A DNA stretch of 64,000 nt from a virus, in IMG/VR virus record IMGVR_UViG_3300035696_000007, positions 96,001-160,000 of that record. The stretch is one strand, 5' to 3'. The notes below the pieces were generated by a model that saw only the letters and a program-made list of their open reading frames with translations, did not search any database and was not told the origin of the DNA. Shown piece after piece: positions 61,642-62,836 of the stretch. The position numbers were made by a program, and so were the translations under genes. Position 1 is the stretch's first letter, and each line of letters opens with the position of its first letter.

Positions 61642-61717
61642 TGGGGCCTCCTGTCGGATTTGCGCCGACCGTCCTCCCCTTACCAAGGGGTAGCATCGCT
61701 GCCTATGCTTAGGAGGC
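61642..61717 (-). tRNA. tRNA-Thr(GGU)
   Basis: CCCC-TTGGTAA-GGGG. Confidence 0.85.
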
Positions 61718-61718
61718 G

Positions 61719-61795
61719 TGGTAGCACCGGTCGGATTTGCGCCGACGACCTTCCCCTTATGAGGGGGCTGCGCTGGCTGGCTGCGCCACGGTGCC
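61719..61795 (-). tRNA. tRNA-Met(CAU)
   Basis: CCCC-CTCATAA-GGGG; GGC..GCT A73. Confidence 0.85.
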
Positions 61796-61888: not shown

Positions 61889-62098
61889 TTCCAGCCCGAG
61901 CGTAGCCGCGATTCTGTTTTATCCGCACATCACTCTAGGCCGCTACCATGCCCTCTTGACGGGAAGCACTACCCTGGGGCCCTTTTGCGTTGCAGCTACC
62001 ATGCGGTGTTGGCGGGCCCGCGCCCTCCCGATCGGCTGCTTTGCTGTCGCGAACTTCCTCCGGGGACGAGCCCCGGCGTGCAGTCCTCTTGGCTGGAA
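61889..62098 (-). ncRNA. rnpB: Miniature RNase P RNA (catalytic domain, nearly no S-domain)
   Basis: P1 TTCCAGCC/GGCTGGAA; GAGGAAGTTCGCGA pairs with ACAGAATCGCGGCTA (P4 with bulged U); P5 CAGC/GCTG+CAA; P6 AAGCA/TGCTT; L15 GGTA; CCTAGAGTGATG. Confidence 0.88.
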
Positions 62099-62105
62099 TC
62101 GAAAG

Positions 62106-62180
62106 TGGCTGGGGCGGCAGGATTCGCGCCTGCGCCATCGGGGTTCAAGGCCCCGCGTGCTGCTGTTACACCACGCCCCA
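62106..62180 (-). tRNA. tRNA-Gln(UUG)
   Basis: CGGGG-CCTTGAA-CCCCG; U1-A72, G73. Confidence 0.88.
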
Positions 62181-62200: not shown

Positions 62201-62836
62201 ATGGTCGACTACTCGACGATCCCCGCCTCCTGCCAGATCCCCGGCCTGGCGGGCATCTACCGGAAGTGGCTCGCGCCCGCGGAGACGGGCGCCTTCGTCG
62301 AGGTGGGGGCCTACAGCGGCATCGCCTACAGCAACACCTACTGCTTCTGCCTCGCGGGCTGGCGCGGGCTGCAGATCGAGCCGCACCCCGCGACCTTCGC
62401 CTCGCTGCTGGAGAACATGCGGCCCTTCCCGAACGTCGCCTGCGAGCAGGTGGCCTGCTCGGACTGCGACGGGGAGGCGAGGCTGTACGACATGGGGGAG
62501 TGCTCCACGCTCGTGCTGGACGAGAACGCGCGGGCCTGGGGCTGCCGCGAGGACCGGTTCATCGTGGTCAGGACGACCCGGCTGGACGGGCTGCTGGAGA
62601 GGCACGCCATCCCGCCCGGCTTCGAGGTGCTGGTCGTCGACGTCGAGGGGGCGGAGCTGTCGGTGCTGGCCGGGCTCGACCTGCGGCGGTGGCGCCCGAG
62701 GATGGCGATCGTGGAGACGCACGAGAAGCACCCGAGCATCCTACACCCCAACGCCTGGGCCATCACCAAGCACTTTGAGGACCGGGGCTACTGCAAGGTC
62801 TACGCCGACCACATCAACAGCATCTTCGCCCGCTGA
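62201..62836 (+). CDS. FkbM-family methyltransferase
   Basis: FVEVGAYSG..SNT, GWRGLQIEP, VDVEGAE..VLAG. Confidence 0.88.
   Translation: MVDYSTIPASCQIPGLAGIYRKWLAPAETGAFVEVGAYSGIAYSNTYCFCLAGWRGLQIEPHPATFASLLENMRPFPNVACEQVACSDCDGEARLYDMGECSTLVLDENARAWGCREDRFIVVRTTRLDGLLERHAIPPGFEVLVVDVEGAELSVLAGLDLRRWRPRMAIVETHEKHPSILHPNAWAITKHFEDRGYCKVYADHINSIFAR

Follow-up and report, generated by a model that had tools for sequence, protein, structure and literature searches.

A miniature phage-encoded RNA homologous to the catalytic domain of RNase P RNA, found in tRNA arrays of large phages

Introduction

RNase P is the ribozyme that trims new tRNAs, and its RNA subunit is one of the few universal ribozymes. 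In Escherichia coli this subunit is M1 RNA, the 377-nt product of rnpB and a member of class A (Rfam RF00010), whose RNAs are 340–420 nt long. In bacterial RNase P, the GGU motif of loop L15 pairs with the 3'-CCA of the tRNA. To our knowledge, the gene for RNase P RNA is usually taken to belong to cells and organelles. A minimal archaeal RNA of the Pyrobaculum type (type T) was reportedly described by Lai et al. in 2010.

The Pyrobaculum RNA, named type P in PMC4919922, is a natural RNase P RNA made up of the catalytic domain (C-domain) only, nearly the whole specificity domain (S-domain) being gone (PMC4919922). In bacteria the S-domain reads the D and T loops of the tRNA, and the protein RnpA binds in the C-domain; pre-tRNA is cleaved by the isolated bacterial C-domain whether or not RnpA is present, constructs restricted to this domain acting at reduced rate and affinity (PMC4919922).

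Here we describe a 210-nt gene on the minus strand at positions 61889–62098 of the window, by which we mean the whole 64,000-nt stretch of viral DNA that was analysed. The RNA specified by this gene is genuinely homologous to the catalytic domain of RNase P RNA, and its structure is under selection. The RNA resembles bacterial class A RNA in its P1–P5 topology, P2/P4 pseudoknot and bulged U in P4, in the P6 pseudoknot between J5/7 and L17, in a P15–P16–P17 arm with a GGU internal loop, and in near-identical CR-I, J5/15 (GCAA), CR-IV and CR-V strings. It departs from class A in length (210 nt versus 340–420), in carrying a stub of about 27 nt in place of P7–P14, CR-II and CR-III, in the loss of P18, in the proximal P4 pairs (AGU/GCU instead of AAG/CUU), in being encoded by a phage without rnpA, and in scoring under the threshold of RF00010, which finds nothing in the window record. 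With the Pyrobaculum RNA it shares a natural architecture that is limited to the C-domain; unlike that RNA, which is cellular, archaeal and associated with archaeal proteins, it has L15 GGU, J15/16 and CR motifs of bacterial type and lies in tRNA arrays of tailed phages, among tRNAs with encoded CCA. Engineered bacterial ribozymes reduced to the C-domain contain the same parts and likewise have no S-domain; they are, however, laboratory truncations, whereas the phage RNA is a natural conserved gene with a small stub of its own and usually no P18. Among Rfam models, that of the archaeal type A/M RNAs (RF00373) scores best and aligns end to end, and archaeal type A RNAs also lack P18, yet the scores are 16–41 bits against a gathering score of 84 bits and the archaeal forms retain the S-domain. 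Archaeal type M, moreover, is without P6, P16 and the P15 recognition loop, all three of which the phage RNA keeps.

Results

The gene and its setting in a phage genome

An earlier note on this DNA, made from the letters alone, had proposed a phage-encoded, type-A-like RNase P RNA at this locus. An unbiased search for the best P1/P2 pairing returned exactly its coordinates, 61889–62098 on the minus strand, running from the 5' end to the 3' end of P1, so that RNA position p corresponds to window coordinate 62099−p. R1, a covariance model of the family described below, matches 61892–62094 at 119.5 bits and finds no second copy in the 64 kb, and the end-to-end alignment with RF00373 spans 61890–62097. 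The gene boundaries are the same in all homologues.

The window belongs to an IMG/VR virus record of 82.8 kb, about 37% complete and 65–72% GC, and carries genes for a T4-like portal protein (PF07230, E 1e-17) and a phage-type helicase, which bears out the assignment to a phage. We rejected a protein-coding reading of 61889–62098, since the overlapping open reading frames are typical high-GC frames and the sequence varies through indels and through base changes that come in pairs; the 262-aa frame that overlaps the RNA gave no Pfam match. A scan of the flanks of the window copy for promoters and terminators gave no signal above chance.

The gene sits in a dense array of tRNA genes on the minus strand. 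In the window ARAGORN identified 16 tRNAs, to which Rfam added tRNA-Gln(UUG) and a relaxed ARAGORN threshold tRNA-Thr(GGU). The upstream neighbour is the tRNA-Gln (62106–62180, minus; Rfam match 62109–62180, 53.3 bits), which ARAGORN missed; its CCA, at 62106–62108, ends 7 nt ahead of P1. Downstream, 93 nt past P1, lies tRNA-Met(CAU) at 61719–61795 (minus; ARAGORN and Rfam), followed after 1 nt by the tRNA-Thr at 61642–61717 (minus), which was missed by ARAGORN at default settings and at the Rfam gathering score. CCA is encoded by the tRNA-Met, the tRNA-Thr and indeed all 18 window tRNAs checked (16 of 16 found by ARAGORN, tRNA-Gln and tRNA-Thr). An open reading frame for an FkbM-family methyltransferase (62201–62836, plus strand; PF05050, E 7e-21) lies midway through the array but on the other strand.

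Sequences following the tRNA CCAs on the minus strand between 58800 and 64000 are T-rich, typically with 25–62% T over the first 8 nt compared with 17% for the strand. The motif CUUUC(G/A) recurs in the 12 nt after these CCAs and is also present 3' of the mini RNA, in AACUUUCGG; it may be a shared 3'-processing signal.

Secondary structure of the window copy

All elements lie on the minus strand. The 5' strand of P1 (62086–62098) is composed of UUCCAGCC, an AA bulge and GAG, and the 3' strand (61889–61900) of CUC, a G bulge and GGCUGGAA, giving a UUCCAGCC/GGCUGGAA helix with an additional inner GAG/CUC. P2 is formed by CUGCACG (62077–62083) and UGUGCGG (61923–61929). The P3 hairpin, CCGGGG-CUCGU-CCCCGG as read from the sequence, occupies 62060–62076; relatives often have a 3-bp stem capped by a GNRA loop here. 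CR-I and the 5' strand of P4 follow at 62047–62060 (GAGGAAGUUCGCGA, bulged U included), and pair with the region at 61903–61917 in which CR-V (ACAGAA) precedes the 3' strand of P4, UCGCGGCU, and an A, matching ACAGAAnnnnGGCUUA of the Rfam models. In RNA numbering, the P4 pairs are A44-U195, G45-C194 and U46.G193, with U47 bulged, and C48–A52 with U188–G192; the resulting 8 bp plus bulged U are equal in length to bacterial P4.

P5 pairs CAGC (62043–62046) with GCUG (61993–61996), and the 5' strand of the P6 pseudoknot, AAGCA (62037–62041), pairs with UGCUU (61964–61968) in L17, the loop of the P16–P17 arm (61950–61980), whose P16 and P17 pairs covary. J5/15 (GCAA) and the 5' strand of P15 (CGC) occupy 61987–61993, the GCAA being invariant or nearly so and the same in RF00010 and RF00373. 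The L15 sequence GGUA, a candidate binding site for the tRNA 3'-CCA, and the 3' strand of P15 (GCG) lie at 61941–61947, and the GGU is conserved in the alignment. CR-IV, AGAGUGAU, leads into the P2 3' strand UGUGCGG (61923–61936) and aligns to AGAugAAUG of RF00010. Each helix that the earlier note had claimed (P1–P5 with the bulged U in P4, P6, P15 with the GGU, P16 and P17) is present, and every one covaries in homologues. The minimum free energy of the window copy, taken as a single sequence, was no better than that of shuffles (z-score 0.28).

A stub replaces the specificity domain

In the window 46 nt separate the two P5 strands, close to the 40 nt or so estimated beforehand and within the family range of 40–81 nt. 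CR-II and CR-III are not present, and the specificity domain P7–P14 is replaced by a helix-loop-hairpin stub of about 27 nt (62004–62030, minus) with a CGG/CCG outer helix, a 5' GA, the hairpin GGGC-GCGG-GCCC and the 7-nt 3' strand GCCAACA. The same module is common across the family, where an outer helix of 3–5 bp, a 5' GA and a short hairpin, often GNRA-capped, follow the P6 strand and the 7-nt 3' strand ends in an invariant A.

As the earlier note had observed, P18 is missing: only CCU separates the P15 3' strand from CR-IV in the window, and most members have no P18 either. In four members, however (L150:7597–7840, L206:8913–9139, L182:3279–3496 and L140:176–399), a GNRA-capped hairpin stands in precisely the place of P18. 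This agrees with an origin from a class A RNA that was reduced, and the four look like intermediates in that process.

A family of homologues with compensatory changes

Two scans of IMG/VR for sequence patterns (GAGGAA[N]GT and, after a gap, ACAGAA-NNNN-GGCT; also a version with a longer gap) recovered relatives among 93 and 104 viral stretches. R1 was built from a trimmed 23-sequence alignment, A2, and contains P1, P2, P3, P5, the inner helix and P15–P17, P4 and P6 having been deliberately omitted. Together, the two scans and R1 gave 83 matches in 69 distinct alignment rows, scoring 68–186 bits. Full-length matches are 182–245 nt long and range from 33 to 65% in GC; about 59 of the matches lie outside the seed, and the non-seed member L120 was recovered at 67.8 bits. 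The CR-I string GAGGAAGUUC is invariant across all members, although this invariance, like that of CR-V, was partly imposed by the search patterns.

Carriers include contigs of 306–501 kb. One copy is present in the 735-kb GenBank record LR756501.1 (R1 112.6 bits), which is not annotated. When compared by blastn with 50,697 GenBank phage records, only the L143 query found a match, to LR756501 and LR756503; the window copy, L040, L201 and L186 gave none, and the search found no cultured phage with the mini RNase P RNA. A partial R1 match at L035:3230–3343 (plus strand; 21.5 bits, model positions 19–147) has GAGAGGAAGUAUGUC and an arm resembling P15–P17, and may represent a diverged relative whose P4 region has changed.

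RNAalifold, run unguided, predicted P4, P5, P15, P16 and P17, and 17 of the 21 pairs carry compensatory changes; ViennaRNA with P4 masked returned P1, P2, P3, P5, the inner helix and P15–P17. In A2, 92.4% of the cells are paired (67.9% in shuffles and 29–40% in slid controls) and double changes occur in 36 of 46 pairs. In A4, the alignment of 69 distinct sequences, the paired fraction is 94.5%, as against 65.5% in shuffles and 30–44% in slid controls; double, compensatory changes affect 39 of 46 pairs, and none of 500 shuffles equalled any observed measure. For the nested helices A4 follows the model to which it was fitted; cleaner evidence therefore comes from A2 and from P4 and P6, which the model left out.

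Helix by helix, A4 shows P1 88.5% paired with all 8 pairs covarying family-wide, P2 98.1% paired with 6 of 7 pairs covarying, P3 95–99% paired, and P5 100% paired with covariation in all 4 pairs; P15, P16 and P17 covary as well. P4, though absent from the model, is 99.8% paired in the 69 distinct sequences and has 4 covarying pairs. The P6 strands form 3–8 bp in every member, and at least 5 bp in 22 of 24, drawing on about ten distinct pairs of sequences; the mean score is 5.9 for cognate strands and 3.6 for non-cognate ones, and only 2.9% of non-cognate pairings reach the cognate median. Compensatory change is thus found in every helix, both pseudoknots included, as a genuine structure had been expected to show. 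Taken alone, the window copy is weak by Rfam score and by folding energy, but its homologues decide the matter, their covariation indicating more than chance.

Relation to known RNase P RNA models

At the gathering score, a search of the whole window against Rfam gave no RNase P match, nor did the 601 nt around the locus at E ≤ 10. RF00010 matched neither the window record nor LR756501. The archaeal model RF00373, of the RNase P clan (CL00002), matched the window copy at 16.3 bits (E 0.0058), and did so only when 234 nt were searched alone. Over positions 1–288, the same model aligns to L074 at 40.8 bits (E 1.9e-8), and it also aligns to L037 (E 3.7e-7) and L120 (E 1.7e-3); in the alignments to these three and to the window the S-domain segment is collapsed. 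All Rfam scores stay far under the gathering thresholds of 84 and 100 bits, the best for RF00373 being 16.3 (window) and 40.8 (L074) against 84. Other models of the clan matched too, at lower score, and were masked by clan competition behind RNaseP_arch. Since the top model of the clan is archaeal, the scores do not settle between bacterial and archaeal ancestry. In the reciprocal test R1 failed to recover E. coli rnpB (3.1 bits), because it is unable to bridge the S-domain and P18 of that RNA. The model comparison that the earlier note called for came out in favour of its reading, with CR-I, CR-IV and CR-V aligned end to end by RF00373; RF00010 gave no match and every score fell below the gathering thresholds.

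For the comparison of motifs, E. coli rnpB aligned to RF00010 served as the class A reference. The CR-I, CR-IV (AGAnnAAU) and CR-V (ACAGAA..GGCUA) blocks occur in the right order, aligned to the model consensus. CR-I reads GAGGAAAGUCC in class A and GAGGAAGUUC in the phage family, two positions deviating with compensation in CR-V, where class A has ACAGAACCCGGCUUA and the family ACAGAAucgcGGCUA (ACAGAA-nnnn-GGCUA). The three outer P4 pairs are accordingly AGU/GCU in place of AAG/CUU, so that two normally invariant pairs next to the bulged U are changed and their pairing is kept; a P4 that strays from the E. coli-type consensus and still pairs was part of the original description. J5/15 and J15/16 read GCAAggccAAAUAGG in class A and GCAAc.cAAAcAG in the family; L15 is CGGGUAggcc in class A, cGGGUUg.GGC in the family and AUGGUAGCGGC in the window, and CR-IV is AGAugAAUG, AGAuaAAUG and AGAGUGAUG, respectively. 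The term type-A-like is well suited to an RNA that has P6 and the P15–P16–P17 arm with its GGU, and whose J5/15, L15, CR-IV and CR-V are nearly identical to the RF00010 consensus. The RNA falls outside class A on the S-domain, P18 and the Rfam thresholds, while all the parts said to be sufficient for catalysis are present (PMC4919922). The alternative of a tRNA-like or YrlA-type RNA family was considered for 61889–62098 and rejected, as the locus has the CR blocks and is aligned by models of the RNase P clan.

tRNA neighbourhood and protein partners

Within 5 kb of 72 distinct copies we counted 630 tRNAs on the same strand as the mini RNA and none on the opposite strand. Same-strand tRNAs occur within this distance of 54 of the 72 copies, and at least three such tRNAs near 49. 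The upstream tRNA is no more than 30 nt away in 18 copies and the downstream tRNA in 17; in L089, for instance, a tRNA lies 5 nt away on either side. Around some copies, the nearest 4–5 kb contain no tRNA. The share of tRNAs that encode CCA ranges among relatives from 0 of 9 to 31 of 32, with low cases of 0/9, 1/22 and 2/25, so that CCA–GGU pairing cannot be all there is to recognition.

RnpA (PF00825) was not found in five phage records, namely the window record and four of huge phages, three of the records being at least 98% complete. Clustering of the open reading frames within 4 kb of the 72 copies, meant to reveal a protein cofactor encoded nearby, gave no family present at more than 11 of 72 loci. 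The recurrent clusters comprise HNH endonucleases (the largest), GIY-YIG proteins, a metallophosphoesterase and an AAA_33 kinase, and none of them includes the window.

Two other features of the carriers concern translation. tRNAs with the suppressor-type anticodon CUA (ARAGORN 'Pyl') occur at L044:8568–8641, L080:5497–5648 and L107:9933–10005, a sign that those huge phages may recode TAG. Phage tmRNA genes lie near the mini RNase P RNA at L061:1263–1644 and L107:5069–5412, both on the minus strand; pre-tmRNA is among the known substrates of bacterial RNase P (PMC4919922).

Occurrence in prokaryote genomes

A scan of 185,579 prokaryote species genomes yielded 8 pattern matches, 2 of them strong by R1. 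The two strong matches sit on MAG contigs of 13 kb and 2.3 kb, each with tRNA genes; given their shortness and these genes, the contigs are probably mis-binned phage DNA.

Discussion

We regard the locus, with a probability of about 0.7, as a gene under selection that encodes a reduced RNase P RNA of bacterial type, which likely cleaves the 5' leaders of phage pre-tRNAs, probably together with host RnpA. Expression, catalysis, protein partner and substrates are matters that we infer from the sequence and its context. The RNA would probably be co-transcribed with the surrounding phage tRNAs and probably be freed from the array by the same processing of tRNA ends. As the phage records have no RnpA and the contact surface for this protein lies in the C-domain, host RnpA is most likely borrowed and bound by the mini RNA, which would then most likely remove the 5' leaders of the phage's own pre-tRNAs, aided by CCA–GGU pairing.

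The same observations can be read in other ways. A non-catalytic mimic of the C-domain might act as a decoy or regulator, binding host RnpA or the 3' ends of pre-tRNA and so diverting or throttling host tRNA maturation to the advantage of the phage. The lack of an RnpA gene in the five phage records, of which three are 98% or more complete, would agree with this, as would the retention of the domain in which bacterial RnpA binds (PMC4919922) and the alteration of two universally conserved P4 pairs. A decoy, however, has no need of the bulged U, ACAGAA, the J5/15 GCAA, the L15 GGU or P6, all of which are conserved across a GC range of 33–65%; the P4 changes are compensatory, and a place on the same strand among the phage's own tRNAs suits processing better than inhibition. 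We therefore consider a decoy improbable. About equally improbable, if marginally less so, is an active ribozyme with different or broader substrates, one that reads only an acceptor-like stem and CCA and mainly cuts non-tRNA targets, for instance host RNAs or tRNA-like punctuation of phage transcripts, or works with a phage protein rather than host RnpA. The RNA lacks the S-domain that reads the D and T loops (PMC4919922), some copies have no tRNA nearby, and in several relatives few tRNAs encode CCA. Against this, 75% of the copies lie in same-strand tRNA arrays, and no family of neighbouring proteins recurs at more than 11 of 72 loci, the recurrent ones being homing endonucleases, a phosphoesterase and a kinase.

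A decaying fragment of a host rnpB, or a chance GC-rich look-alike, might be suspected from the window copy by itself, which has no Rfam match at the gathering score, a folding z-score of 0.28 and overlapping spurious reading frames. This explanation is very hard to sustain in the face of 69 distinct homologues that span 33–65% GC, with identical boundaries and compensatory changes in 39 of 46 pairs and in both pseudoknots. Nor does it gain from the overlapping reading frame, which lacks a Pfam match, or from the prokaryote genomes, where the only 2 strong matches among 185,579 species are on short, tRNA-bearing contigs. The reading as a reduced RNase P RNA that matures phage tRNAs is the one we prefer.

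A further, rather doubtful step would be that large phages carry their own minimal tRNA-processing ribozyme in order to take over or bypass host RNase P during infection. If so, the RNA might act with no dedicated protein or with hijacked host RnpA. A ribozyme without an S-domain would recognise its substrates through an acceptor-like stem and CCA only and could therefore act on a wider set, which might include its own release from the array. It would then be the first RNase P encoded by a virus and, among natural RNase P RNAs of bacterial type, the smallest. A full-text literature search, with most subscription journals beyond its reach, found no publication on a phage- or virus-encoded RNase P RNA, in line with the earlier note, whose author knew of no characterised phage version of bacterial type. 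Maturation of tRNA 5' ends would join the translation-related functions of large phages, with a bearing on phage escape from host shut-off or from tRNA-directed defence.

The family also represents a natural experiment in minimisation, in which P1–P6, P15–P17, CR-I, CR-IV and CR-V were kept and the S-domain and P18 dropped, and it offers a bacterial-type RNA of about 200 nt, a putative ribozyme, for structural and mechanistic work. Since Rfam thresholds miss these genes, phage sites such as that in LR756501 are left without annotation.

Two contigs of archaeal MAGs gave weak full-length R1 matches with a different reduced architecture. These RNAs of about 196–215 nt, L130:4582–4777 and L129:3630–3844 (both minus), lie on contigs assigned to a Micrarchaeota MAG and to an uncultured archaeon, and score 42 and 36.5 bits, respectively. 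They keep GAGGAAGUUC, GCAA and ACAGAA..GGCUA, P15–P17 being collapsed to a 5–6-nt loop and the middle insert being longer, at 59–82 nt, and may represent another reduced form of RNase P RNA, either cellular (DPANN) or viral.
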